Origin: an uncultured Chromatiales bacterium
Lineage (GTDB): Bacteria; Pseudomonadota; Gammaproteobacteria; DATFLL01
Length of the DNA: 64,000 bases
Reading direction: 5' to 3'
Assembly (NCBI GenBank): GCA_964561765.1
Contig: CAZLQI010000004.1
Location: forward strand, 54,665 to 118,664
Of this stretch, positions 8,030 to 57,452 are shown in pieces. Under the pieces are notes generated by a model that saw only the letters and a list, made by a program, of their open reading frames with translations, had not been told where the DNA came from and did no database searches. The position numbers were made by a program, and so were the translations under genes. Position 1 is the stretch's first letter. Each line of letters starts with the position of its first letter.

Positions 8030-8606
8030 CCATACGGCTAGGCAACGGATAACTCACTATACGCATATAGGGCATCATGCCTTGCACCCCCGAGGCCATC
8101 GAATACTCATTGTGGTTGACGAGAAAACGGCTCAGTCTGGTTCGCACATCGCGCGTCTCATTGACCAGCTTCGTCTTGTTAGCCACGCCAGCGGCTACCG
8201 GTCCAATGCTGAGCATCGCTGCCGGCCTGGTAGTCACCACCAGATTTTCATTGACTGAAGTGCTCGGCGAGCTTGCGTGCAGGCTCAGAATTGCAACGGT
8301 CGCGATCGTGGCTGCGACAGCCATACCAATCGCCTGCTTTGCAAGGGGCTGTGTCCGCCAACCCCGACGACGTGGCGCCAATACAACCGGCTCGTGTTCC
8401 AATGCCTGACTGACACGCCCCGCCAGTCCTTGCAGCATCACATTGGGAAGATTGTTACGCAACGCATCGCTGATCAGCTGGTAGCGTTCAAAACGGGTAA
8501 GGATGTCGCCGTCGGCATGCATGCTGCTCAACACGCCCCAATGCTCATCACCGTTTAGCTCGCCGTCCAGGAAGGCGGACAACTTCTCGCTGACTGTATC
8601 GCTCAT
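8013..8606 (-). CDS. rseA: Anti-sigma-E factor RseA/MucA
   Basis: MSDTVSEKLSAFLDGEL N-terminal anti-sigma domain and a central TM segment. Overlaps the rseB start by 17 nt. Confidence 0.8.
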   Translation of the reverse strand: MSDTVSEKLSAFLDGELNGDEHWGVLSSMHADGDILTRFERYQLISDALRNNLPNVMLQGLAGRVSQALEHEPVVLAPRRRGWRTQPLAKQAIGMAVAATIATVAILSLHASSPSTSVNENLVVTTRPAAMLSIGPVAAGVANKTKLVNETRDVRTRLSRFLVNHNEYSMASGVQGMMPYMRIVSYPLPSRMVNENR

Positions 8607-8652
8607 AACTGCACTACCTCGAATTGGCAAAATCCAACCGGGACACTCTGAA

Positions 8653-9228
8653 TCAACTCAACAAAGGCGCCAGCTTGGCATCAATCGCCTCTCGTGCCCT
8701 GAAAATCCGTGATCGCACGGTTCCAATCGGACAAGACATAGCTTGCGCGATCTCCTCGTAACTCATGCCTTCCAATTCGCGCAGCGTTATCGCCGTTCGC
8801 AGATCTTCGGGTAAATCATCGATCGCCTGGAAAACCACGCGTTCGATCTCGTCTTTGAACAACATGCGCTCCGGCGTAGCATTCTCGCGCAAAGCGCCTG
8901 CGCCCTCATAATACTCGGCGTCCATCACATCAACATCCGAATCCGGCGGGCGACGCCCTTGTGCCACCAGACAATTCTTTGCCGTGTTGATGGCGATGCG
9001 GTACAGCCAGGTGTAAAACGCGCTATCACCGCGAAATGACGGCAACGCCCGGTATGCCTTGATGAAGGTCTCCTGCGCTACATCCTGTGCTTCATACTGA
9101 TCCTGGACATAGCGCGAAATCAGCTTGACGATCTTGTGCTGATACTTGATAACCAGGACATCAAATGCCTTTTTATCACCTCGCTTAACCTTCTCGACTA
9201 ACGCCTGATCAACGTTCTCCTCGGCCAT
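8653..9228 (-). CDS. rpoE: ECF sigma factor sigma-E (RpoE/AlgU)
   Basis: 191 aa with region 2 and region 4 of an ECF sigma factor, highly similar to RpoE. Confidence 0.9.
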   Translation of the reverse strand: MAEENVDQALVEKVKRGDKKAFDVLVIKYQHKIVKLISRYVQDQYEAQDVAQETFIKAYRALPSFRGDSAFYTWLYRIAINTAKNCLVAQGRRPPDSDVDVMDAEYYEGAGALRENATPERMLFKDEIERVVFQAIDDLPEDLRTAITLRELEGMSYEEIAQAMSCPIGTVRSRIFRAREAIDAKLAPLLS

Positions 9229-9277
9229 GAGGACCCATCCCCTTTCAACTCTGACGGGCCATCCGACTCCTTATCAT

Positions 9278-9305
9278 TACGACACGTACATGTCGAATAA
9301 GTTCG
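9278..9305 (-). promoter_or_regulatory. Putative sigma-E-type autoregulated promoter of rpoE
   Basis: On the minus strand, CGAACTT (consensus GGAACTT), a 16-nt spacer, then TCGTA (consensus TCTGA/TCAAA), roughly 50 nt upstream of the rpoE ATG. Confidence 0.3.
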
Positions 9306-9447
9306 CCAGATGGCCATGCTTTTGGGTATAGTGTGTCCCACCCTCGGAGGCGACAATCAACCGTAGCCAGCCTTGGATTCCCACCGGGATTAGCCTTAAT
9401 GATAACTGCAACAAAAGTACACCGCGCCAGCACTTGCCCCTTGAACT

Positions 9448-11052
9448 GTGCCTATGCCCCGCCCCGTACAACAACACTCTGACGTACTGGTCATCGGCAG
9501 TGGAGCAGCCGGCCTGAGCCTGGCGCTGCGCCTCGCAGATACTCATTCTATCTCATTGATTTCAAAAGGCCCACTATTAGATGGTTGTACCTTGTGGGCA
9601 CAGGGTGGCATTGCCGCCGTACTCGACCCCGCCGACTCGGTCTGCGCACATATCAAGGATACGCTCGACGCCGGCGCCGGGCTGTGCAATTCTGACGTAG
9701 TCAGGCATGTGGTTGAGCAAAGTGCGGCCTGTATCCACTGGCTGATAGCGCGCGGTGTGCCCTTCACATCAGGCCAGTACTCCGACGGGCGCGACGGCTA
9801 TCACCTCACCCGCGAGGGGGGACACAGCCACCGGCGCATCATCCACGCCGCCGACGCCACTGGCCAGGCCGTGGAAACCACACTCGGCGAACAGGTTCGC
9901 CGACACTCGAATATCCGTATTTTTGAACGCCACAATGCGCTTGACCTGATCACCGCGCACGCATCCGATAACGTACCCCATCGCTGTCTGGGGGCCTATG
10001 TGCTGGATCGAGACAGCGGCCATGTTGGTGTATTTCGCGCCCGCCAGATCGTACTGGCAACCGGTGGTGCCAGCAAGGTCTATCTGTACACCAGCAATCC
10101 CGACAGCGCCAGCGGTGACGGCATCGCCATGGGCTGGCGTGCGGGTTGCCGGGTGGCCGACCTGGAGTTCAACCAGTTCCATCCGACCTGCCTCTATCAC
10201 CCCAAGGCAAAATCATTTCTCATCACCGAGGCCATTCGCGGCGAAGGCGGGCAACTACGGCTGGCCGATGGTCACCGTTTCATGGACCGATTCGACCCGC
10301 GGGGCGAACTCGCGCCGCGCGATATCGTCGCCCGTGCCATCGACCACGAGATGAAACGCACCGGTGCAGACTGTGTCTATCTGGATATCAGCCACAAGCC
10401 AATCAGCTTCATCAAGGCGCATTTTCCGACCGTCTACGAACGCTGCCTGGCATTCGGCCATGATCTGAGTCGAGAGTCCATACCCGTCGTACCGGCAGCC
10501 CATTATACCTGCGGCGGTCTGGTCACCAATATCCACGGTGGTACTGATGTCGAGGGGCTCTATGCCATCGGCGAGGTCGCCAGTACCGGCCTGCATGGTG
10601 CCAACCGCATGGCCAGCAACTCGCTGTTGGAATGCCTCGTCTTCGCCAAATCTGCCAGTGAACATATCCGCGACCAACACCGCCCCCTGCCCGGTCCCCT
10701 GCCAGAATGGGATGAAAGCCGAGTGACCGACTCCGATGAAGAGGTGGTAGTCTCACATAACTGGGATGAACTGCGCCGATTCATGTGGGATTACGTGGGT
10801 ATCGTTCGCACGACAAAACGCCTGCAGCGGGCCAAAAACCGGGTGGATCTGTTACAGCGTGAAATTCAGGAATATTACGGTAATTTCCGCGTCACCAGCG
10901 ATTTACTGGAACTACGCAATCTCGCCCAGGTCGCCGAACTCATCATCCGCTCTGCCCTGCTGCGGCGTGAAAGCCGTGGTCTGCATTACACCCTCGATTA
11001 CCCCGAAGCAGATGCCACCAGCGCTGCGCTGCACACCGTGCTGACACCCTGA
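9448..11052 (+). CDS. nadB: L-aspartate oxidase
   Basis: FAD-binding GSGAAGL N-terminus and full-length NadB similarity. Divergent from rpoE, as in E. coli. Confidence 0.9.
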
Positions 11053-11090
11053 ACGACACCCATCACGGCAACCTCGGTCGCAATCACCGT

Positions 11091-11561
11091 CTATTCGCTC
11101 GCCGATGTGCGGCCCACGCCCTCCAGGCACAGGCGCACCCGGAGGCGACGCAACAGATCCTCAGGCAGGCTGTCCACGGCCAGCACGACTGCCCGGTCGC
11201 GCGCACACGGACAGGAAAAACGCAATACGATCAAAACAGGCAGAACAAGACTATCAGCCAGCAAATGGCCCTCCAGCACCTCGCCAGATCGGGTAAACAG
11301 ACGCCAGCGCCCCTCACCGGACCAATCAAGCCGCACAATCGCCGCCGGATCTCGCAAGCGCACCCGGCGCAGTCCAAGGGACAGGCTCCAGAGCACCAGA
11401 CCCAATAACCCGATGCGCAGCCCGTACGGCACACTGAGGGGAGACAACAAGGCAGTGATGCCCAGCACATGCACCGCGATTAGTGCGCAGGTCAACTGTC
11501 GCGAGGGCTGCAGCTCAAGGCTCAACCGCGTTGCGAATTTGGACGACAACATCAGCGACAT
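11091..11561 (-). CDS. ygfX: YgfX/CptA-family inner-membrane protein (DUF1434)
   Basis: About 155 aa with two TM helices after a short N-terminal segment. Immediately downstream of sdhE, as in the E. coli sdhE-ygfX pair. The start is uncertain. Confidence 0.55.
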   Translation of the reverse strand: MSLMLSSKFATRLSLELQPSRQLTCALIAVHVLGITALLSPLSVPYGLRIGLLGLVLWSLSLGLRRVRLRDPAAIVRLDWSGEGRWRLFTRSGEVLEGHLLADSLVLPVLIVLRFSCPCARDRAVVLAVDSLPEDLLRRLRVRLCLEGVGRTSASE

Positions 11562-11763
11562 CCTTGTCAAAGGGCACGGCACGGCCCATCAGATATTCCA
11601 GTAGCAAGGGATCGGAGCACGCCAGCAGGGTTTCCAGTGCCGTGCGCTGTACCGCATCCAGTTCGGCATAACGCCGGTCCATAAAACCCTGCAACAGGGC
11701 ATCGAGTTCCAGCATACCACGCCGACATTGCCAATAGAGGCGCTGGAAGTCCCGCGTCTGCAT
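11515..11763 (-). CDS. sdhE: FAD assembly factor SdhE (YgfY/CptB)
   Basis: 82 aa: MQTRDFQRLYWQCRRGMLELD... aligns with E. coli SdhE (the conserved WACRRGM.ELD motif). Confidence 0.8.
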   Translation of the reverse strand: MQTRDFQRLYWQCRRGMLELDALLQGFMDRRYAELDAVQRTALETLLACSDPLLLEYLMGRAVPFDKDVADVVVQIRNAVEP

Positions 11764-11785
11764 TACCGAAGCATCGAGCACCACG

Positions 11786-11794
11786 CCCCCCCCC
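11786..11794. repeat. Homopolymeric C9 (G9 on the coding strand) tract in the sdhB-sdhE intergenic spacer
   Basis: Nine consecutive C at 11786-11794, about 22 nt upstream of the sdhE ATG. Confidence 0.8.
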
Positions 11795-11807
11795 GGACCC
11801 GTGTCCT

Positions 11808-12503
11808 TCAAACCATCTCCTGGAGCATCAGATGCTTGATGGCATGGATGGCTCGTGCCGGATTCAGCCCCTTGGGGCAGGCTTCGACACAGTTCATGAT
11901 GGTGTGACAACGGAACAGGCGATAGGGACCATCGAGTTCCTGCAACCGCTGAGCAGTGGCCTGATCCCGACTGTCGGCCAAAAAACGATAGGCTTGCAAC
12001 AAAGCGGCCGGACCACGGAACTTGTCCGGGTTCCACCAAAAAGACGGGCACGCAGTGGAACAACAGCCACACAGAATACACTCGTACAGACCATCGAGAC
12101 GCTCCCGTTCCTCAGGGCTTTGGCGGTATTCCACTTCCGGTTCAGGCTCGTTGACAATGAGGTAGGGCTTGACTGCCCGGTAGTGTTGAAAAAACTGGCT
12201 CATGTCGACCACCAGGTCACGCACCACCGGCATACCGGGTAGCGGGCGTACCTCCACCGGCTCACTAAGGTCCGCCAACGCGGTCACACAGGCCAGACCG
12301 TTGCGCCCATTGATATTCATGGCATCGGAGCCGCACACGCCTTCACCGCAGGAATGACGAAAGCTCAAACTCTCATCCTGGGCCTTGATGCGCAACAGCG
12401 CATCGCGCAACATCATGTCCGCACGAACCTCATCCAGCGCATACGCCTTCATATATGGCTTGGCGTCAGTCTCGGGATTGTAGCGGTAGATCAGAAACTG
12501 CAT
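11808..12503 (-). CDS. sdhB: Succinate dehydrogenase iron-sulfur subunit
   Basis: 2Fe-2S and 4Fe-4S Cys motifs (CGSCAMNING.., CILCGCCS). Full-length SdhB. Confidence 0.9.
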   Translation of the reverse strand: MQFLIYRYNPETDAKPYMKAYALDEVRADMMLRDALLRIKAQDESLSFRHSCGEGVCGSDAMNINGRNGLACVTALADLSEPVEVRPLPGMPVVRDLVVDMSQFFQHYRAVKPYLIVNEPEPEVEYRQSPEERERLDGLYECILCGCCSTACPSFWWNPDKFRGPAALLQAYRFLADSRDQATAQRLQELDGPYRLFRCHTIMNCVEACPKGLNPARAIHAIKHLMLQEMV

Positions 12504-12623
12504 CAGAAAGTCCTCAATCCTCAGTGGTCAGGCAAAAATACGCCGAGGTTCCTCGCCGCCACCACCGTCAACGCCCCCTCACGTCACACCACCCTCTGCT
12601 TCTTGCCAACCACGGAGATTAGC

Positions 12624-14384
12624 TCAGTAAACGCGTGCCTTTGGCGGAAACGAATCGACGCTAAGCGGCTTGATATGCACCGGTTTGTAATCCAGCCGAC
12701 GCCCCTGTTTGTAAAACAGACTGTGTTTGAGCCAGCTCTTGTCGTCACGTTCCGGATAATCGATCCGGCTATGCGCCCCACGGCTCTCCCGACGGGCCAG
12801 GGCAGAGGTTACCGTGGCAACGGCAAGATCGATCAGGTTCTCCAGCTCCATCGCCTCAATTCGGGCAGTATTGAACACCTTACTGTAGTCACGCAGGCGC
12901 ACATCCACCAACCGGGCCTCCAAAGCCAGTATCTTCTCCAGACCTTCCTGCAGCACTTCCTCGCGGCGAAACACGCCACAATAGTCTTCCATGGTTTCCT
13001 GCATCTCACTGCGCAGGGCGTCGACGCTCTCCCCGTCACCGCGCTGGTCCCACCGAGTCAGGCGCGCCATGGCCTGATCCAGGCTGTCCTGCGCCAGCGC
13101 GCGGTGATAATGGTTTTCCTGCAGATATTTGATGATGTGATTACCCGCAGCACGACCGAACACCACGATGTCGAGCAATGAATTACCACCGAGACGATTT
13201 GCACCATGCACGGAGACACAGGCACACTCTCCCGCGGCATACAGACCCGGGATGACCTCCTGGCCCTGCTCTATCGGCACCACCACCTGACCATGACGAT
13301 CGGTAGGGATGCCTCCCATCGTGTAGTGCGTGGTGGGAAAAACCGGAATCGGCGCGGTAACCGGGTCGATGTGCAGGAAGGTCCGCACCATGTCCCGGAT
13401 CCCGGGCAGGCGTTTGGCCACGACCCCTTCGCCGAGATGCTCAAGCTTGAGCAGGACATGGTCTGCCTTAGGACCACACCCTCTACCCTCACGCACCTCG
13501 ATGGCAATCGCCCGACTGACCACATCGCGACTGGCCAGATCCAACGCGTGGGGGGCATAGCGCGTCATGAAGCGCTCGCCATCTTTGTTGATGAGATAGC
13601 CTCCCTCGCCACGCGCACCTTCGGTGATCAGCATGCCCTTGCCAGCGATGCCGGTGGGGTGAAACTGGAAAAACTCCATATCCTGCAACGGAATACCGAC
13701 ACGCAGTGCCATGGCCAGGCCATCGCCCGTATTGATATGTGCATTGGTATTCGTGCGAAATAGCTGACCGGCCCCGCCGCTGGCGATGAGCGTCGTCTTG
13801 GCCTCGATCAACAGCGGTTCACCGGTCTCGATCTCCATGACCAGCGCCCCGAGGATGAAACCGTCGACATCCTTGATCAGATCAATACAGAAATATTCGT
13901 CGAAAAAATGTGTTTTGGCACGGATATTCTGCTGGTAGAGGGCGTGTAACAGTGCGTGGCCGGTGCGATCCGCTGCGGCACAAGTCCGTACGGCCTGCTC
14001 ACCACCGAAGTTCTGACTCTGCCCGCCGAAGGCACGCTGATAGATGCGGCCATCGTCCAGTCGTGAGAATGGCACTCCGGCATGTTCGAGCTCAATCACC
14101 AGATCCGCTGCCGCCCGACACATGTATTCAATGGCATCCTGATCGCCCAAGTAGTCGCTGCCCTTGATGGTGTCATACATATGCCAATGCCAATTGTCGG
14201 GCAGGACATTGCCCAGGGCAGCATTGATCCCGCCTTGGGCGGCCACCGTGTGCGAGCGGGTGGGGAATACCTTGGAGACCACGGCAACGGTAGCCTCCGC
14301 CTGCGCGAGCTGCAGGGCCGCCCGCAGACCGGCACCACCCGCACCAATGACTAGAGAATCGAATTTGCGTTTTGGTAGACTCAT
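12624..14384 (-). CDS. sdhA: Succinate dehydrogenase flavoprotein subunit
   Basis: FAD motif VIGAGGAGLRAA and the His-FAD attachment region RSHTVAAQGG. The start is probably MSLPKRKFD at 14384. Confidence 0.9.
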   Translation of the reverse strand: MSLPKRKFDSLVIGAGGAGLRAALQLAQAEATVAVVSKVFPTRSHTVAAQGGINAALGNVLPDNWHWHMYDTIKGSDYLGDQDAIEYMCRAAADLVIELEHAGVPFSRLDDGRIYQRAFGGQSQNFGGEQAVRTCAAADRTGHALLHALYQQNIRAKTHFFDEYFCIDLIKDVDGFILGALVMEIETGEPLLIEAKTTLIASGGAGQLFRTNTNAHINTGDGLAMALRVGIPLQDMEFFQFHPTGIAGKGMLITEGARGEGGYLINKDGERFMTRYAPHALDLASRDVVSRAIAIEVREGRGCGPKADHVLLKLEHLGEGVVAKRLPGIRDMVRTFLHIDPVTAPIPVFPTTHYTMGGIPTDRHGQVVVPIEQGQEVIPGLYAAGECACVSVHGANRLGGNSLLDIVVFGRAAGNHIIKYLQENHYHRALAQDSLDQAMARLTRWDQRGDGESVDALRSEMQETMEDYCGVFRREEVLQEGLEKILALEARLVDVRLRDYSKVFNTARIEAMELENLIDLAVATVTSALARRESRGAHSRIDYPERDDKSWLKHSLFYKQGRRLDYKPVHIKPLSVDSFPPKARVY

Positions 14385-14722
14385 AGCACCACGACAGACA
14401 GAACAATCATCAGGACCCACACCACCATGGCCAGCAGCGCGAGCAGAACCAGGCCGAGCAGGACCAGGCGCAAGGCCAAGGGGTGGACATAATCAATCAG
14501 GATATTGCGCAATCCGACCCAGGTATGGATCAGCAAGGCGGCAAAAAACAACGCAACAGCCACACTGACCACCGGCATCGCCAACAGCGCGTGCCATGCC
14601 GCAAAGTCCAAGGGGTACATGATGCCCAGCACGGGCAGCGCCGCCAGCACGAACACGACCAGATAGATCGCGCTCAGACGCTGCCACAGCCACGCCCTGA
14701 GGCCCTGCACACGCCAGTTCAC
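14381..14722 (-). CDS. sdhD: Succinate dehydrogenase membrane anchor subunit
   Basis: About 113 aa with three TM helices. A GTG start overlaps the sdhC TGA (GTGA). Confidence 0.75.
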   Translation of the reverse strand: MNWRVQGLRAWLWQRLSAIYLVVFVLAALPVLGIMYPLDFAAWHALLAMPVVSVAVALFFAALLIHTWVGLRNILIDYVHPLALRLVLLGLVLLALLAMVVWVLMIVLSVVVL

Positions 14723-23114: not shown

Positions 23115-24188
23115 TCACGATTTCTCACACACACCAAGTATATCGCGCAGTGGGCGTCGACGGTGCCACCCGTGTCGCCAGGCAGGGCGTTCCAGACACC
23201 ACTGCCTGCCGGTGTCACTGACCAGTGTGAGACGCCCCAATCGACCCCGGCCCAGCGCCTCCAGCAAGGGCGCCAGCCAGCAGGACTGCACCTCGCCCAG
23301 CGCCCCCAGCCAGTTGTCGGCATCCGCGGTCAATACTGCCGCATGCAGACTATCAAGCACTAACAGGGATGTCTCGTGTGCATCACACGCAGCCAGCAAG
23401 GCATCCGCATCATCCGGTAGGGCACGTCCTGGCGTATCGGTATGGCAGGCCAATCCCCGTGCCAGGGGATGATCGGCCATAACCGTGTTGAACCGGGCCG
23501 GGACCGTGGGTGGCAGCGTGCCGCCTCCCCAGAACCAGAGGCTATTGACAGGCAGACGTCCCGCCTCTTCGCGCACCGTATTGAGCGCACAGGCGTGCAG
23601 AATCATCTGCACATCGTTGAGATACCGACGCCAGCAGCGTGCCGCCTTGCCCCGTGGCAAGGCGGTGTGCATGTCCCGGCCCAACACCTCGGTCAATGGG
23701 GTGGTCTGCAGTTGCGGCGGCCCACCCGCGTCGCCACCAAGTCTGAGATACCAGCGATGTGGATGCGCCACCTCCAGATGCCAGCCCTGTTCCGCAAAGC
23801 CCGCAGCGACAGCATCGGCCAACTGCCGGGCCTCCTCCACACACAAGGCCAATGCGTCATGCGCCAGCACAAGGGCACGGTCGCGATCGATCTGCACGTA
23901 GATGGGATCGGCACGCAGCCACCAAGATCCGTCAGGTGTACCCCTATCGTGCAGCCGGGTCAGCGCCGCCACCGGCAAATCTTCCTGGGTCCCGACAGGC
24001 AGGCCAAACAGGGCAAACAGCCCGGCTTCGAGTCCCTGCACACCGGTCGTCTGGCCCCGTGCCCGCGTCAGGGCAATCTCCAGCCCGCGTAGCGCTGGCC
24101 AATCTGACAACGGCCGTTCAGACAGGCCAGACAGTGGACCACACAGTCCCGGCATATAGACGGTGAGATGAGGAGAGAATCGACTCAT
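23115..24188 (-). CDS. Conserved hypothetical protein; possibly RpfE-type / alkaline-phosphatase-superfamily phosphoglycerate-mutase-like
   Basis: 357-aa ORF between hom and recJ. The family is not recognised with certainty from sequence alone. The RpfE-type assignment is a recollection of recJ-adjacent genes in Xanthomonas. Confidence 0.4.
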   Translation of the reverse strand: MSRFSPHLTVYMPGLCGPLSGLSERPLSDWPALRGLEIALTRARGQTTGVQGLEAGLFALFGLPVGTQEDLPVAALTRLHDRGTPDGSWWLRADPIYVQIDRDRALVLAHDALALCVEEARQLADAVAAGFAEQGWHLEVAHPHRWYLRLGGDAGGPPQLQTTPLTEVLGRDMHTALPRGKAARCWRRYLNDVQMILHACALNTVREEAGRLPVNSLWFWGGGTLPPTVPARFNTVMADHPLARGLACHTDTPGRALPDDADALLAACDAHETSLLVLDSLHAAVLTADADNWLGALGEVQSCWLAPLLEALGRGRLGRLTLVSDTGRQWCLERPAWRHGWHRRRPLRDILGVCEKS

Positions 24189-32162: not shown

Positions 32163-32676
32163 TCAGCCCTCGATCTCCACCCGCTTCTCTATCGCGGGAT
32201 TGGCCGGATCATCACCGATCAGCTCACGCACCACGGCGGTGGCATAGCTCCCCGCTGGCAGACTAAAACGCAACGTCAATTCACCGGCAACACCCTGCTC
32301 CCACGCCAGATCCGTCAGCCCGAGTCGCAAGGCACGCCGTTCCTGTCGCAATCCCACACCGGCCAGTGCGAGACACCACTCATCCAGTCCCACCAGCGCC
32401 TCAGCCTCCACGGCGGCGGCCTGGGCGCACACCGGCAAACTGCGCCAGACGCCGGGCCAGCCAGTCAGTGTTCAGGCCACGTTTGCGCAATTGCAACCAG
32501 ACATGTTCACCATCGACCACCGTACCCGCACTGACCTGCAGATCGGGCACCGGGCCGGGCGTATAGCCGAGGATTTCCTCGACGACGAAATCCTCCGGTC
32601 GGGCACGCAGGATGGCGTGTGCAACCGCTGCACCGTGGGCCAGGGCGAGGGGGTGACAAACAGGGTGATCAGACAT
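32163..32676 (-). pseudogene. truD: tRNA pseudouridine(13) synthase TruD remnant with internal deletion and frameshift
   Basis: The ORF 32401-32718 encodes the TruD N-terminus (RARPEDFVVEEILGY...). The ORF 32163-32438 encodes the TruD C-terminus (LTLRFSLPAGSYATAVVRELI). The frames differ, and roughly 180 central codons are missing. Confidence 0.65.
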
Positions 32677-32830
32677 GGGGTAGAGACTGCAAGCGGGGCC
32701 GTGGACAATATCGGCCAATGAATGATTCGATGAGACTGTACACTACGGGGCGGCAATGCCGATATCACGCACTATGCGCAGCCCCGCTGACAGCACGCAA
32801 TCTGCCATCGTCCGGTACGCAGCGGACCAC

Positions 32831-33730
32831 TCACTTGGCCGTGGCCAGAGTCTTGCGCAATCCGGTCACCACACACCGCGCCAGCTCACCGGGAACAAAC
32901 TTGGTGAGAATATCATCAGCACCGCATTGGCGGGCCCTTTCCGAGTTGATGGCGCCATTGAGTGAGGTGTGTAACAACACATACATATGTGAAAAACGTG
33001 GATCCGCCCGCAGGGCCTCGGTCAAGCCGTAACCGTCGATCTCGGGCATCTCAATATCGGAGATCACCATCGCGACCGGGGCTTCGTCATCGCGGCGCTT
33101 ACGCAACGCCTCCAACGCCTCGCGTCCATCGCGTGCCAGGATATAACTCACGCCTATCTCATCCAGCATGCGGGTGGTCTGCGCGCGCGCCATGGCCGAG
33201 TCATCGACGACCAGTATCGGTTGCCTATGCAAGGCAGGGTCATCCAGCCCGCTAATGTCCTCATCCAGTGCCATCGCTGCAGGTTCGACCACCTCGACCA
33301 ACACACGTTCGATATCCAGAATCTGCACCAGAGCGTCATCCACGCGGGTTACACCGGAAATATAGGACCGCGCCCCGGAGCCATGCGGTGGTGGCGTCAC
33401 CTGATTCCAATCGCAAACCACAATCCGTTCAACGCGCTCGACCAGAAAGCCCTGGGTGGCACGGTTGAATTCGGTCACCAGCACAGAGGAACCGTGCGTC
33501 TCGATCGCCGCGCGTCCTATCGCCCGACTCAGATCAATGACCGACAACGCGACACCACGCAAGGTGGCAACACCGCAGACCGTGGCATGCGCATGCGGTA
33601 CGTGGGTCAGCGCTGGACAGGGGATTACTTCCTTGACCTTGAGCACATTGATCCCGAAACGCTGTCGACCGCCCAGGTTGAACAGCAGCAGTTCCAGGCG
33701 ATTATCGTTGCGATGGGTTGGGTCATTCAT
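32831..33730 (-). CDS. cheV: Chemotaxis protein CheV (CheW-like plus receiver domain)
   Basis: An N-terminal CheW-like domain and a C-terminal REC domain (ILVVDDSAMAR...DIEMPEIDG). Confidence 0.8.
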   Translation of the reverse strand: MNDPTHRNDNRLELLLFNLGGRQRFGINVLKVKEVIPCPALTHVPHAHATVCGVATLRGVALSVIDLSRAIGRAAIETHGSSVLVTEFNRATQGFLVERVERIVVCDWNQVTPPPHGSGARSYISGVTRVDDALVQILDIERVLVEVVEPAAMALDEDISGLDDPALHRQPILVVDDSAMARAQTTRMLDEIGVSYILARDGREALEALRKRRDDEAPVAMVISDIEMPEIDGYGLTEALRADPRFSHMYVLLHTSLNGAINSERARQCGADDILTKFVPGELARCVVTGLRKTLATAK

Positions 33731-33850
33731 GCGCGTAGGCGAATCGTAGGTCACGGTGTCTTGGCTATCGGCCGCGCGGACTATTTCTTGAATCTCGGAC
33801 ACGCCCCGCGCAGCCGCGAGGCGCTGGAGGCGCTGGAGGCGCAGCATGCA

Positions 33851-34333
33851 TCAGGACGTCGCCAGGGTGGTGAGCAAGACCACGGCGTGGGTGGCAATCC
33901 CCTCAGACCGTCCGATAAACCCCATGCCCTCAGTGGTCGTGGCCTTGACGTTGATCTGCCCCGGGGCAATACCGAGATCATCGGCAAGCTGCGTGCACAT
34001 GGTGGAAATATGCGGCCCCAGGCGAGGCAACTGGGCCACGACAGTGACATCCGCGTTGCCTACGACATACCCCTGATCAGCGAGCAATAGCACAACACGA
34101 CGCAGCAATATCCGGCTGTCGATATCCTTGAAGGCCGCGCTGGCGTCAGAAAAGTGTCGGCCAATGTCCCCCAGTCCGGCCGCCCCAAGCAGGGCATCAC
34201 ACAGGGCATGAATCACGACATCACCATCGGAGTGTGCCGCCAGACCCTGCTCGTGCGCAATGTGCACGCCACCGAGGATCAGACGACGCCCGTCGGTAAA
34301 GCGGTGGGCATCATAGCCATGACCTATGCGCAT
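33851..34333 (-). CDS. ispF: 2-C-methyl-D-erythritol 2,4-cyclodiphosphate synthase
   Basis: MRIGHGYDAHRF N-terminus. Full-length IspF. Confidence 0.9.
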   Translation of the reverse strand: MRIGHGYDAHRFTDGRRLILGGVHIAHEQGLAAHSDGDVVIHALCDALLGAAGLGDIGRHFSDASAAFKDIDSRILLRRVVLLLADQGYVVGNADVTVVAQLPRLGPHISTMCTQLADDLGIAPGQINVKATTTEGMGFIGRSEGIATHAVVLLTTLATS

Positions 34334-35082
34334 ACCCCCTCCTGCTGTCGGCGCAGATACAACTCGGCCAGCGCGAGGTCCTGCGGGTGGGTGATCTTGA
34401 TGTTGTCCGGGTGTCCGGACACCATTCGTGGATGCAGTCCCTGGGCCTCGATGGCGGCGGCCTCATCGGTGACCACCTCCCCCTGTGCCAGGGCTGCCTC
34501 CAACGCGGCACGCAACACGCCGAGACGAAACATCTGCGGTGTCAGCGCCCGCCACAATCCGTCCCGGCTCACCGTCTCCCGCACGCGACCGGCACGGTCA
34601 CAACGCTTCACTGTATCACTGACTGGCAGACCCAGCAGGCCACCCACCGGATCGCTCGCCAGGGTGGTCAGCAGTATGTCGATATCGGCATGGCGCAAAC
34701 AGGGTCGAGCGGCATCGTGGACCAGCACCCAGTCGTGCTCGTCGGCATGGCCGGCCAGCAGGACTAGAGCATTGAGAACAGAATGGCACCGCTCCTCACC
34801 CCCCGCTGCGGTATACACCGGCACGCTGGTTTCGGGACGGTGCGCAGACCAGTATGGATCATCTGCGGCAACGGCCACCACGATGCCAGCGATGGCCGGG
34901 TGGCCGGCGAGTCGCAACAGGGTATGGGCAATCACGGCACGGCCCGCCAGCGGCAAATACTGCTTGGGCAGAGGTTTACCCATACGCAAACCCACTCCCG
35001 CCGCCGGGACGACCGCCCAGTATCGCGGAGTAGAACAACGCTCGGGAAACGGTGGGGAGATGACAACATCGGTGGGCATGGC
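34324..35082 (-). CDS. ispD: 2-C-methyl-D-erythritol 4-phosphate cytidylyltransferase
   Basis: AVVPAAGVGLRMG motif. Overlaps ispF by 10 nt. Confidence 0.85.
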   Translation of the reverse strand, partial: AMPTDVVISPPFPERCSTPRYWAVVPAAGVGLRMGKPLPKQYLPLAGRAVIAHTLLRLAGHPAIAGIVVAVAADDPYWSAHRPETSVPVYTAAGGEERCHSVLNALVLLAGHADEHDWVLVHDAARPCLRHADIDILLTTLASDPVGGLLGLPVSDTVKRCDRAGRVRETVSRDGLWRALTPQMFRLGVLRAALEAALAQGEVVTDEAAAIEAQGLHPRMVSGHPDNIKITHPQDLALAELYLRRQQEGVCA

Positions 35083-35113
35083 GATGGACCGGATAGCGTG
35101 GAAACGCAATGAT

Positions 35114-35392
35114 TCAGCGTTTTTCTTCAACAATCTGATAGTAAGTCTCGCCCGGTTTGATCATGCCCAGTTCGTTGCGGGCACGCGCCTCGATCGCCGC
35201 CAACCCGTGTTTGAGATCACGGACCTCGGCCAGCAGCGTCTGATTGCGTTCTGCCAAGTGGGTATTTTCTTGCCGCTGGGTCGACAGCGTGTGCTCTAGG
35301 CGCCATACCGGGCGCATGCCGTCGGCACCGATCCAGAGATCGTATTGCAACACAACGAACAGGTACAACAGGATGGCGAAAACAACTTTCAT
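35114..35392 (-). CDS. ftsB: Cell division protein FtsB
   Basis: 92 aa with an N-terminal TM helix and a coiled coil. Upstream of ispD. Confidence 0.8.
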   Translation of the reverse strand: MKVVFAILLYLFVVLQYDLWIGADGMRPVWRLEHTLSTQRQENTHLAERNQTLLAEVRDLKHGLAAIEARARNELGMIKPGETYYQIVEEKR

Positions 35393-35474
35393 GTGCTGGA
35401 CTGGCCCCCCCGGCACGCGCCCTGTCAGCATGATAGCAGATTATCGCGGGCAACCGCATTCGTCTTCTCGGCCC

Positions 35475-35845
35475 TCATCCATCACCAGAGAGGAACTGTC
35501 CCTTCTTGATGTTCACCGGCAGTCCTGGCGTGCCACGTTCTGGATAAAGTTGGTCTGCCGACACAAAAAGGCCGGTGTCTGCAACACATCGACCACTGCC
35601 GCCACCTCATTGATGGGCGTATCTTCATGCACGTCGGTGAGCACCGCCACACCGAGCTGGCGTTTGACCGACTCCAGGATACGCAGACCTTTCTCCAGCC
35701 CTAGTCCGCGGAAACTCCCGCTCGAGGTTCGGTTGGCCTTGTCGAAGGAGGATTTGTAAATGAGCGACATGCCTAGCCGCGCGGTAATGACCTGAATCGC
35801 CTCGGCCGTGTCCAGCGCCAGTTGTCTCGATCACACAGGGCCCGG
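35475..35845 (-). pseudogene. kdsA: 2-dehydro-3-deoxyphosphooctonate aldolase (KdsA) remnant
   Basis: [46 protein letters not shown]...TDVHE...[15 protein letters not shown] aligns with KdsA residues about 30-135. There is an in-frame TGA at 35831-35833 where the conserved Glu of VLESRD sits. A frameshift occurs near 35513 ([13 protein letters not shown] then stop). Both the N-terminal 25 codons and the C-terminal half are absent. Confidence 0.65.
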
Positions 35846-35891
35846 CTATCAGGAACAGGGGCAGCCTTGAAATCGCACAGCGACATCGCGC

Positions 35892-37655
<1,764 letters not shown>

Positions 37656-44731: not shown

Positions 44732-44982
44732 GGTTATCCTCGCGTGACCTGTACCATGTGGGCGTCAAGCTTACCCGGACATCGGACCGCTGTCATGTCC
44801 CTGAGGACACATCTGCATCACGCATTTCACCCGGCTCGCTCACAAAGTAAAGGAACCCCTGAGTCAAGACAGAAACACGCCGAGTTTAAGCTGTGCATTC
44901 CCCTTCATACGCAGCAGGTCGGCATCGCCCCGGTGGTGGTATAAGTCTCTGATTTTCCATCACTGCCAAATCTGTCCACGAT

Positions 44983-45135
44983 CACCGCCCCGCCACCCTG
45001 GCGGCTCGCATACACCCGATCCGGCTGCCTGCATCAATGTCCACCTCCGGGCCAATCACCGTGAACAGCCCGACAGTCACACCGTCGCCTATCCTGGCAT
45101 CGGGGTCTACAACCGCGCGCGGATCGACACTCATA
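44983..45135 (-). pseudogene. lpxA: UDP-N-acetylglucosamine acyltransferase LpxA N-terminal stub (50 codons)
   Basis: The ATG overlaps the fabZ TGA (ATGA), as canonical. [40 protein letters not shown] aligns with the hexapeptide-repeat start of LpxA, then a stop. There are only about 250 nt before rnhB and no lpxB. Confidence 0.6.
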
Positions 45136-45581: not shown

Positions 45582-46622
45582 TCACTCCTTTTGTGCTTGA
45601 GATTGTAATTGTTTCTCCAACACCTTGAGGCGCCGCGCCATAGCGTCGAGTTGTTTAAAACGTACAAAATTCCTGTGCCATTGGCGGTTGGGTTCCAGTG
45701 GCACACCGGACGAGTACACCCCGGGCTCGGAAATGGAATGAGTCACCATCGACATACCGGTGATTTGTACGTTATCGGCTATTTCCAGATGTCCGACTAC
45801 ACCCACACTTCCGGCCAGGACACACGCCCGTCCAATCTTCGCACTACCTGCGATGGCCGTACACGCAGCAACTGCGCTATGTGCACCAATGTGCACATTA
45901 TGGCCAACCTGGATCAGGTTATCGAGTTTTACACCCTCCTCCAGGATGGTGTCCTCCAACGCTCCACGGTCAATCGTCGTATTGGCACCCACCTCCACAT
46001 CATCACCGATACGCACTGTGCCAAGCTGTGGCACCTTGACCCAGCGGCCCTGATCATTGGCAAGACCAAAACCTTCTGCACCGATCACCACACCCGGGTG
46101 TAACAACACACCCTGGCCGACAATAACATCATGGCACAGCGTGACATTGGCAATCAGCTGTGTGTTGCGGCCGATCTCCACCCCGGCACCCACAACACAG
46201 CCCGGGCCGATAAAAACGTCTTCAGCAATATGGGCACCGGATTCTATGACGCTGTTAGGTCCAATCCAGGCACCGTTGGCCACGCGGGCATCTGCAGCGA
46301 CCACCGCGGTAGCGTGTATGCCCTGTGGGTGCTCCTGCTCACCGAGTAGCAAAGTCGCAATCCGCGCATAAGCAAGATAGGGGTCAACCACGATTAGGGC
46401 GGCTGTCGGACAGGCATCAATATCCGGGCGGCGTAAAATCACGGCTGCCGCCTGCGTCTGTGGCAACTGTTTGCGAAATGGCGCACGGGTCAGGAAGGTT
46501 ATCTGTCCCGCACTGGCAAGGTGCAGAGGGGCAACACCCTCAATAATGAGTTCGGCATCACCGTGAACCTCACCCGCTACATACTCCGCTAGCATGCCGA
46601 GGGTATATTTTATCGGCGAGAC
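45582..46622 (-). CDS. lpxD: UDP-3-O-acylglucosamine N-acyltransferase
   Basis: Full-length LpxD with left-handed beta-helix hexapeptide repeats and the conserved C-terminus. Confidence 0.9.
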
Positions 46623-46648
46623 ACCCTGTTGTTGATCTCTTTCCATCA

Positions 46649-47206
46649 TCACTTTTTCGCGGGCGCACCCGGTTTTCCACTACCCGTGGCGCTGTTCTCG
46701 CGGCGCAGTACATCCAGTACTTTTTGCGTCACATCAACGCGTTCACTCGCATACAACACGCTGTTGTCCCCAAGGATCATGTCATAGTGCTGTTCTTTGG
46801 CCAGGGTGGCTATCGCCAGCAGAACTTGGCGTTGCAGCTTGCTGAGTTCTTCATTTCGACGGATATTGAAATCCTCGCGAAATTCATCCTGGGAACGTTT
46901 TATATCACGTTTTTTCGACAAGATGGCACTCTCAAGTTCACCCTGTTTGTTATCACTCATCAGCGCGCCATTACGCGCCAGTTTGTCCTCAAGTTTTGCG
47001 AGCTGTTTTTGCGCCTTGACCAACGCCTTATCGCGAGGCGCAAACTCTGTCTGTAATTTATGCCGTGCCACTTCCGCCTGTGGGGCTTCTTCGAGCACCT
47101 TAGCCGTGTTGACGAAGCCCAGTTTGACTTCGGCGGCCCACAACGGTGTCGCCAAACACAGCAACAGACTAAACGAGACTGCCATATAGATATTGTATTT
47201 TTTCAA
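46649..47206 (-). CDS. skp: Periplasmic chaperone Skp (OmpH)
   Basis: Signal peptide followed by a coiled-coil OmpH domain. Between bamA and lpxD. Confidence 0.8.
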   Translation of the reverse strand: MKKYNIYMAVSFSLLLCLATPLWAAEVKLGFVNTAKVLEEAPQAEVARHKLQTEFAPRDKALVKAQKQLAKLEDKLARNGALMSDNKQGELESAILSKKRDIKRSQDEFREDFNIRRNEELSKLQRQVLLAIATLAKEQHYDMILGDNSVLYASERVDVTQKVLDVLRRENSATGSGKPGAPAKK

Positions 47207-57153: not shown

Positions 57154-57452
57154 GATTAACTCCTGATTGTGTTGGGTTGGTCCTCCATGCACCCCATCTG
57201 CCAACCCCCGGTCAAAACCGTTGTCGCTGTGGCCCGTGGTGGGCCAGCGGCAGGGGCACCCAGGCAGGTGTGCCGGTGCATGTGTGGATTTTCCCCTTTA
57301 CGGGGCCGTAATATACCCGCACCGAACCCGATGCAGACGGAAGCCTGATTTGCTTACCAGGCGCGCGCTTTATACCATAAAAGGGCTTGGAACAACAAAT
57401 CCGCTCCCCCAGTGTGGCATCGTGCCACGCTGGCCGGAACCTGGCCTTCAGG

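Follow-up and report, generated by a model that had tools for sequence, protein, structure and literature searches.

The window analyzed here is a 64-kb stretch of DNA in which a decayed remnant of kdsA lies between pyrG and ftsB (Table 1). The remnant, the two genes that flank it and all other genes discussed below are on the minus strand. In tblastn, E. coli KdsA matched positions 35830–35528 of the window over its residues 30–130 (48% identity, E = 2e-28). By blastn, the remnant shares 78% DNA identity over approximately 375 nt with the intact kdsA genes of two relatives, L003 and L101, so the kdsA remnant that a first-pass annotation of this DNA had described between pyrG and ftsB is indeed there. 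The longest open reading frame in it encodes 85 amino acids (35513–35770); public assemblies have it annotated as a gene, with a match to PF00793 (DAHP_synth_1). A tblastn search with E. coli KdsA gave no second match within the 64-kb window. E. coli enolase had no match anywhere in the 64 kb, and eno is absent between pyrG and ftsB, as had been claimed.

Table 1. Features of the window discussed in the text, with their positions.
Feature	Position	Strand	State and extent	Evidence
truD pseudogene	32163–32718	−	residues ~11–72 and ~285–344 left; ~210 internal codons deleted	tblastn with L003 TruD
cheV (CheW and receiver domain)	32831–33847	−	inserted between ispF and truD	Pfam CheW and Response_reg
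ispF	33851–34333	−	intact	Pfam YgbB
ispD	34324–35079	−	intact; called gene shorter, from 34983	Pfam IspD
ftsB	35114–35392	−	intact, 92 aa from ATG 35392 (MKVVFAILL...)	alignment to L003 and L101 FtsB; Pfam DivIC
deletion junction zone	35393–35489	−	possible weak trace of kdsA codons ~140–168; a range for the breakpoint, not one position	
kdsA pseudogene, unambiguous part	35490–35886	−	codons 1 to ~140	tblastn, frameshift-aware alignment, DNA alignment
6-bp (TCTGAT) indel polymorphism	35825–35826	−	inside the kdsA pseudogene	alignment of the window with L001 (L001 1585–1590)
pyrG (CTP synthase)	35892–37541	−	intact, 549 aa; stop TGA 35892–35894	Pfam CTP_synth_N and GATase; 82% identical to L101 PyrG
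lpxA remnant	44982–45134	−	first ~45 codons	50-aa Hexapep product called
lpxD	45582–46649	−	intact, 355 codons (1068 nt)	Pfam LpxD and Hexapep

The ATG of kdsA itself is found at 35886, 5 nt past the pyrG stop, and the start of the remnant relative to that stop is the place that kdsA takes in relatives, as expected of a pseudogene left in position. Codons 1–8 read MSLCDFKA, where the KdsA proteins of relatives begin with MKLCGFEAG. The frameshift-aware alignment places an 11-nt deletion after codon 8 (approximately 35862). The bases from 35861 to 35826 code for a stretch of 12 residues, which ends at a frameshift at 35825/6. Positions 35824–35527 correspond to KdsA residues ~27–125, and a third lesion, a 1-nt deletion, lies at 35526. 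Past it, a further 13 residues can be read to about 35483, with more lesions beyond 35482. Clear KdsA homology stops at 35490, codon ~140. The first-pass annotation held that both ends of kdsA are lost. The 3′ part is gone, but from the ATG at 35886 onward the 5′ end survives, though in different frames. The in-frame TGA that it assigned to a conserved glutamate (VIES, 35830) had been read in the wrong frame, upstream of the frameshift at 35825/6.

The bases between the end of clear homology and ftsB gave no blastn match to L101. A weak trace of kdsA may continue to approximately 35405. Its protein-level alignment score was equaled in 6 of 1000 shuffles, and in this alignment the TGA at 35425–35427 sits on the Glu of VCERG. 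A competing DNA match of junction bases to DKARAVG was equaled in 2 of 300 shuffles. The two alignments (35405–35482) are mutually exclusive and about equally good, so the breakpoint of the deletion is not fixed. No homology to the C-terminal half of the KdsA barrel (residues ~170–280) was found past codon ~140–168 anywhere in the 64-kb window.

A functional KdsA is expected to occupy an uninterrupted frame of ~280 codons; here at least three breaks interrupt it. The conceptual translation preserves without change the conserved N-terminal substrate-binding motifs, 27 residues together with NIKKGQF. The remnant cannot code for an enzyme; the stump is dead.

We gathered relatives from the protein collection and from scans of species-representative genomes and JGI metagenomes. 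In all 29 of the 29 relatives that have both flanking genes, kdsA and eno stand at near full length between pyrG and ftsB, and the strong conservation of the pyrG-kdsA-eno-ftsB order stated at first pass is confirmed by this synteny comparison. The pyrG–ftsB spacing is 2.2–2.6 kb in the relatives (4.1 and 5.2 kb in two outliers) against 503 nt in the window, which puts the missing stretch at ~1.75–2.1 kb; the initial estimate of ~1.8 kb lies in this range. The closest relatives are L101 (PyrG 82%, DnaE 78% and SurE 82% identical), L146 and L147 (NCBI MAGs), L014 and L003. These five share the order dnaE-accA-tilS-pyrG-kdsA-eno-ftsB-ispD-ispF-truD-smr-surE, and L146 and L147 continue with pcm-VTT-nlpD-rpoS-DUF498-aminotransferase, the same as in the window. 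The comparison points clearly to an ancestral string lpxD-fabZ-lpxA-lpxB-rnhB-dnaE-accA-tilS-pyrG-kdsA-eno-ftsB-ispD-ispF-truD-smr-surE. From this string, as the gene orders show, one deletion took kdsA from codon ~140–170 onward, all of eno and the eno–ftsB spacer. The kdsA stump now directly abuts the start of ftsB. The fixed deletion and the decaying pseudogene are real; events of this kind are known, and the lineage that shows one here is undescribed. Gene decay of this sort is ordinary in kind, and it is unusual only in striking genes that are normally essential.

Other loci that at first resembled this one were rejected. L011 (CP070733.1, "bin408 chromosome"; 8057–13400) was considered as a second kdsA truncation, with kdsA ending after residue 103 beside mraY. 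In L011 dnaE is also cut, with a C-terminal fragment directly after asd, and unrelated genes are found at both ends. This locus therefore looks like concatenated contigs and was discarded as evidence for truncation. The truncated KdsA proteins P0009, P0063 and P0010 were considered as shared deletions; they are frameshifted genes in otherwise intact kdsA-eno loci and are probably sequencing errors. In L003, L004, L010 and L030 kdsA, pyrG or truD is split into two called genes, and the loci are otherwise intact. The 1-Mb contig of L003 shows base-loss errors where nucleotides repeat in runs, and the split genes of all these relatives look like sequencing errors, not pseudogenes.

By PyrG, the nearest named relatives are Thiohalophilus, Thiohalobacter and Sulfurivermis, together with Gammaproteobacteria MAGs. 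By TilS, the nearest among the matches listed are Candidatus Thiodiazotropha, Ectothiorhodospiraceae and Chromatiales MAGs, at no more than 49% identity. The best TilS identity among the matches listed from species-representative genomes and JGI metagenomes is 49–51%, and the organism itself is not among them. It is a rare, uncultured organism, with its sequence found in only four public datasets. We place it as a sulfur-oxidizer-like gammaproteobacterium in the neighborhood of Thiohalobacter and Thiohalophilus.

Each assembly of this organism that crosses the site carries the deletion. Among these are two independent Logan assemblies, made from the separate runs SRR14803402 (L001) and SRR6439361 (L006), which cover the entire stretch from pyrG through the remnant to ftsB. 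The contig of SRR14803402 is 99.77% identical to the window over 13.5 kb and that of SRR6439361 is 100% identical; all four datasets are near-clonal, at 99.8–100% identity. An assembly artefact or a minority defective genotype, that is, a collapsed or chimeric join or the coexistence of intact and deleted alleles, could be suspected because the NCBI metagenome assembly breaks within the remnant. In GCA_006240935.1, contig VAOZ01069199.1 ends and VAOZ01119093.1 starts exactly at 35825/6, and both match the window exactly. However, this break coincides with the site of a 6-bp indel and lies away from the deletion junction, which speaks for a polymorphism within a dead gene and not for a bad join. 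The remnant also bears several old lesions, and no intact, allele-like KdsA was found in a collection of 5.8 billion proteins. With the two Logan assemblies spanning the junction, the misassembly raised as an alternative at first pass can be set aside, and we regard an artefact or a minority genotype as extremely improbable.

The remnant bears signs of relaxed constraint. Its conceptual translation, compared over 133 ungapped columns, is 73–80% identical to six intact KdsA orthologs, which over the same columns are 77–91% identical to each other. Of the 89 columns at which all six agree, it is altered at 7, with changes that include G to E, P to S and E to K, whereas most of the intact orthologs show only one or two changes at invariant columns when each is treated in turn as the odd one out. 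At least four indels are found in the 480 nt of the kdsA remnant. At 35825/6, L001 has an allele that reads IESEQL with one inserted T; the window allele lacks another 6 bp and is also the allele of L006. Because this 6-bp indel is polymorphic between populations, the stump appears to be still decaying. The changed invariant columns, set against the N-terminal catalytic motifs that are still intact, indicate that the kdsA pseudogene predates the population diversity (0.1–0.2%), yet is not ancient.

The genes downstream of the stump are intact. The ftsB frame stays open as far as a second ATG upstream, at 35431; a start there would lengthen FtsB by 13 residues from remnant or junction sequence (35393–35431), and gene callers give both a 92-aa and a 105-aa form of FtsB. 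The first reading had put ftsB ~80 nt beyond the kdsA fragment; its start is corrected to ATG 35392 on the basis of relatives and of the 92-aa called form. The N-terminal WAVVPAAG motif of IspD lies upstream of the called start and agrees with the IspD of L101. A scan of 35000–36100 found neither a sigma-70-like promoter nor an intrinsic terminator. The simplest expectation is thus that ftsB-ispD-ispF would be transcribed by read-through from pyrG across the kdsA stump.

The kdsA-eno deletion is one of three within 13 kb; the others removed the 3′ part of lpxA with lpxB, and the core of truD. The lpxA stump aligns to residues 8–42 of E. coli LpxA and to L014 LpxA with 40% identity (E = 9e-10). 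The gap between fabZ and rnhB, both of which are retained, is 403 nt (44732–45134), and lpxB is absent from it. In 12 of 12 relatives lpxA and lpxB lie between these two genes, at a spacing of 1.9–2.2 kb (3.7 kb in one relative). No remnants of lpxB, gnnA or gnnB were found between the lpxA stump and rnhB. In L101 (179–3700), lpxB, a DegT-type aminotransferase (gnnB-like) and a Gfo/Idh/MocA oxidoreductase (gnnA-like) lie immediately before rnhB on the other strand; this inversion suggests that the lpx region was already rearranged in the clade. Two short TruD products are called in the window, where the intact TruD proteins of relatives have 314–347 aa. The cheV gene is absent from its position between ispF and truD in every relative examined. 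No repeat or IS scar common to the three deletion junctions was found.

In other respects the window looks like intact, ordinary housekeeping DNA. It carries recO, era, rnc, lepB, lepA, rpoE-rseABC, nadB, sdh, lysS, prfB, recJ, hom, rpoS and glnD, and the string from rpsB to bamA is unbroken, with bamA and skp intact. The GC content ranges from 50 to 68% and is ~60% around the locus; cheV, rpoS, rpoE-rseABC, glnD and sdh are present. The approximately 10 kb past one window edge holds dapC-dapD-dapE and nothing relevant, and no called gene matched past the other edge. The sole Rfam match in the window is a t44 RNA at 57176–57304 on the minus strand (68 bits, E = 4.7e-13), in its usual place upstream of rpsB. 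A 357-aa protein encoded beside homoserine dehydrogenase (23115–24188, minus strand) has a borderline match to Pfam PF10143, the cofactor-independent phosphoglycerate mutase family (E = 2e-4). The contigs SRR14803402_16468 and SRR6439361_10210 both end at ~14120 inside sdhA (12624–14420). This shared contig end may reflect a repeat or strain variation; nadB (9448–11052) is a paralogue.

We propose that other genes of the genome, divergent or horizontally acquired, would provide the activities of Kdo-8-P synthase, enolase, LpxA and LpxB. Such substitutes would have made the native kdsA, eno, lpxA and lpxB redundant and free for deletion, in an instance of gene displacement. The argument starts from lpxD, whose product is useless without LpxA and Kdo. 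A neutral gene of its length would be expected to carry ~9 indels at the indel density of the remnant (at least 4 per 480 nt). lpxD is intact, which suggests that it has been under selection since kdsA died. Its identity to relatives (46.9%, compared with 45.5% among the relatives) is not lowered and its evolution not accelerated; the catalytic His-Asn is retained, and where invariant columns differ the substitutions are all conservative. Selection on lpxD would in turn mean that LpxA and Kdo-8-P synthase activities are still in the cell and hence that other loci encode substitutes. As far as the state of lpxD can tell, the cell probably still makes lipid A. This reasoning could be weakened if the lpxA deletion were much younger than the kdsA lesion.

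The nature of the substitutes was narrowed by searches of the 5.8-billion-protein collection, which includes other proteins of this organism from the four datasets. It contained no KdsA more than 82% identical to the repaired remnant. Proteins of this organism carry a source signature of ncbi and lgn (NCBI and Logan) with ~4 contigs. In a search with the L101 enolase this signature was absent among the best 120 matches listed (at least 76% identity), and a native enolase copy somewhat more divergent than 76% would escape this list. As a control, a search with L101 PyrG recovered the PyrG of the organism (P0263) at rank 15, with 82% identity, 4 contigs and a longest contig of 187,970 bp. As the control recovered PyrG and no enolase with the signature was listed, a native-type enolase is probably absent, judged by the best 120 matches. 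With no close KdsA and no native-type enolase listed, any substitutes would be divergent or foreign. P0134 and P0136 were considered as relocated enolases and rejected, as both come from other MAGs with the canonical locus. Displacing genes elsewhere in the genome are, on these grounds, the most likely explanation. We give the account as a whole, from the ancestral string through the ~1.75–2.1-kb deletion, the dead stump and the read-through to displacement by divergent or horizontally acquired genes, a probability of about 55%.

Displacement requires substitutes for four genes (kdsA, eno, lpxA and lpxB), and a single relaxation of the LPS pathway would be more parsimonious. The organism may have truly lost these functions, with no Kdo, lipid A or enolase: once LPS was no longer needed, decay would have taken kdsA, lpxA and lpxB, and eno would have been lost as collateral, in keeping with a life that depends on a host or partner. 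Of the five lost genes, three (kdsA, lpxA and lpxB) are part of a single pathway, Kdo2-lipid A synthesis, and were lost at their native loci, which suggests a pathway that is being abandoned. No close KdsA paralogue is in the collection and no native-type enolase is among the 120 listed, yet PyrG was recovered; the sequence is near-clonal, 99.8–100% identical across four datasets. There is a precedent in the Pantoea-derived symbionts of stink bugs, in which lpxA, lpxB and lpxD were lost stepwise from the fabZ-rnhB string, with fabZ and rnhB kept (PMC8032781). Against this, lpxD is intact and conserved here, with its catalytic residues complete, and bamA, skp and rseABC are intact. A GC content of 61% and an otherwise complete housekeeping set with cheV, rpoS, rpoE, sdh and glnD are unlike a reduced symbiont. 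The loss of lpxA and lpxB matches LPS loss of the reduced-symbiont type, but decay of the remaining Raetz-pathway genes is not seen, lpxD being the only one of them in the window. Enolase, moreover, is required by nearly all autotrophs and heterotrophs. We therefore treat true functional loss as a tentative possibility, on the whole unlikely. That a GC-rich gammaproteobacterium with chemotaxis genes truly does without Kdo-8-P synthase, LpxA, LpxB and enolase, with lpxD kept for another reason or not yet decayed, we consider doubtful.

The simplest form of the idea that copies exist elsewhere is a recent relocation, in which the native kdsA-eno pair, and lpxA-lpxB with it, was duplicated or transposed within the genome before the originals decayed. 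Local rearrangement does occur in the lineage, as seen in the inserted cheV and in the lpxB-gnnB-gnnA genes of the L101 lineage, inverted beside rnhB. However, a moved kdsA is expected to be at least ~90% identical to the remnant, and the best database match is 82%. A moved eno is expected to be ~80% identical to the L101 enolase and to carry the ncbi and lgn signature; none is among the 120 listed, with PyrG at rank 15 in its own search. The junctions also share no repeat or IS scar. A recent move of the native genes is, in our judgment, a slim prospect, and displacement by divergent or foreign genes is the reading that we retain.

The finding itself, deletional pseudogene decay in an undescribed organism, is well supported. 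kdsA, lpxA, lpxB and eno are regarded as essential and close to universal in Gram-negative bacteria, and they serve as antibiotic targets. Here the native copies of all four have been deleted, from two gene strings that rank among the most conserved in the Proteobacteria. A conserved operon can evidently shed "essential" members while neighboring essential genes (ftsB-ispDF, rnhB-dnaE) stay in place. The lineage would offer an example from nature of gene displacement on a wholesale scale; the less likely reading is a gammaproteobacterium that is naturally free of LPS and enolase. True loss would imply life without canonical LPS and without the step between 2-phosphoglycerate and PEP.

Compared with KdsA (3-deoxy-8-phosphooctulonate synthase, PF00793), what is left in the remnant is the N-terminal half, motifs included (28 residues and VNIKKGQF); the C-terminal half of the barrel is missing and the frame has at least three breaks. 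The locus resembles the canonical gammaproteobacterial pyrG-kdsA-eno-ftsB-ispD-ispF string in its flanks, order, strand and wider neighborhood, from dnaE-accA-tilS to truD-smr-surE-pcm-nlpD-rpoS. It differs from the string of L101, L146, L147, L014 and L003 in that the 3′ 40–50% of kdsA and the entire eno are gone. As in the stink-bug symbionts, the string fabZ-lpxA-lpxB-rnhB-dnaE has lost lpxA and lpxB and still has fabZ and rnhB, and decay extends to kds genes (PMC8032781). Unlike in those symbionts, lpxD is intact and conserved, the GC content is ~61% and chemotaxis, stress-sigma and respiratory genes are present. Loss of enolase, seen here at the native locus, is not mentioned in the stink-bug symbiont paper (PMC8032781). 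Compared with xenologous or non-orthologous gene displacement followed by decay of the resident copy, the displacing genes are here inferred from indirect evidence. The likeness to such displacement is in what remains at the locus: the resident copies decay in place, the dependent lpxD appears to stay under selection and no close paralogue is detectable.
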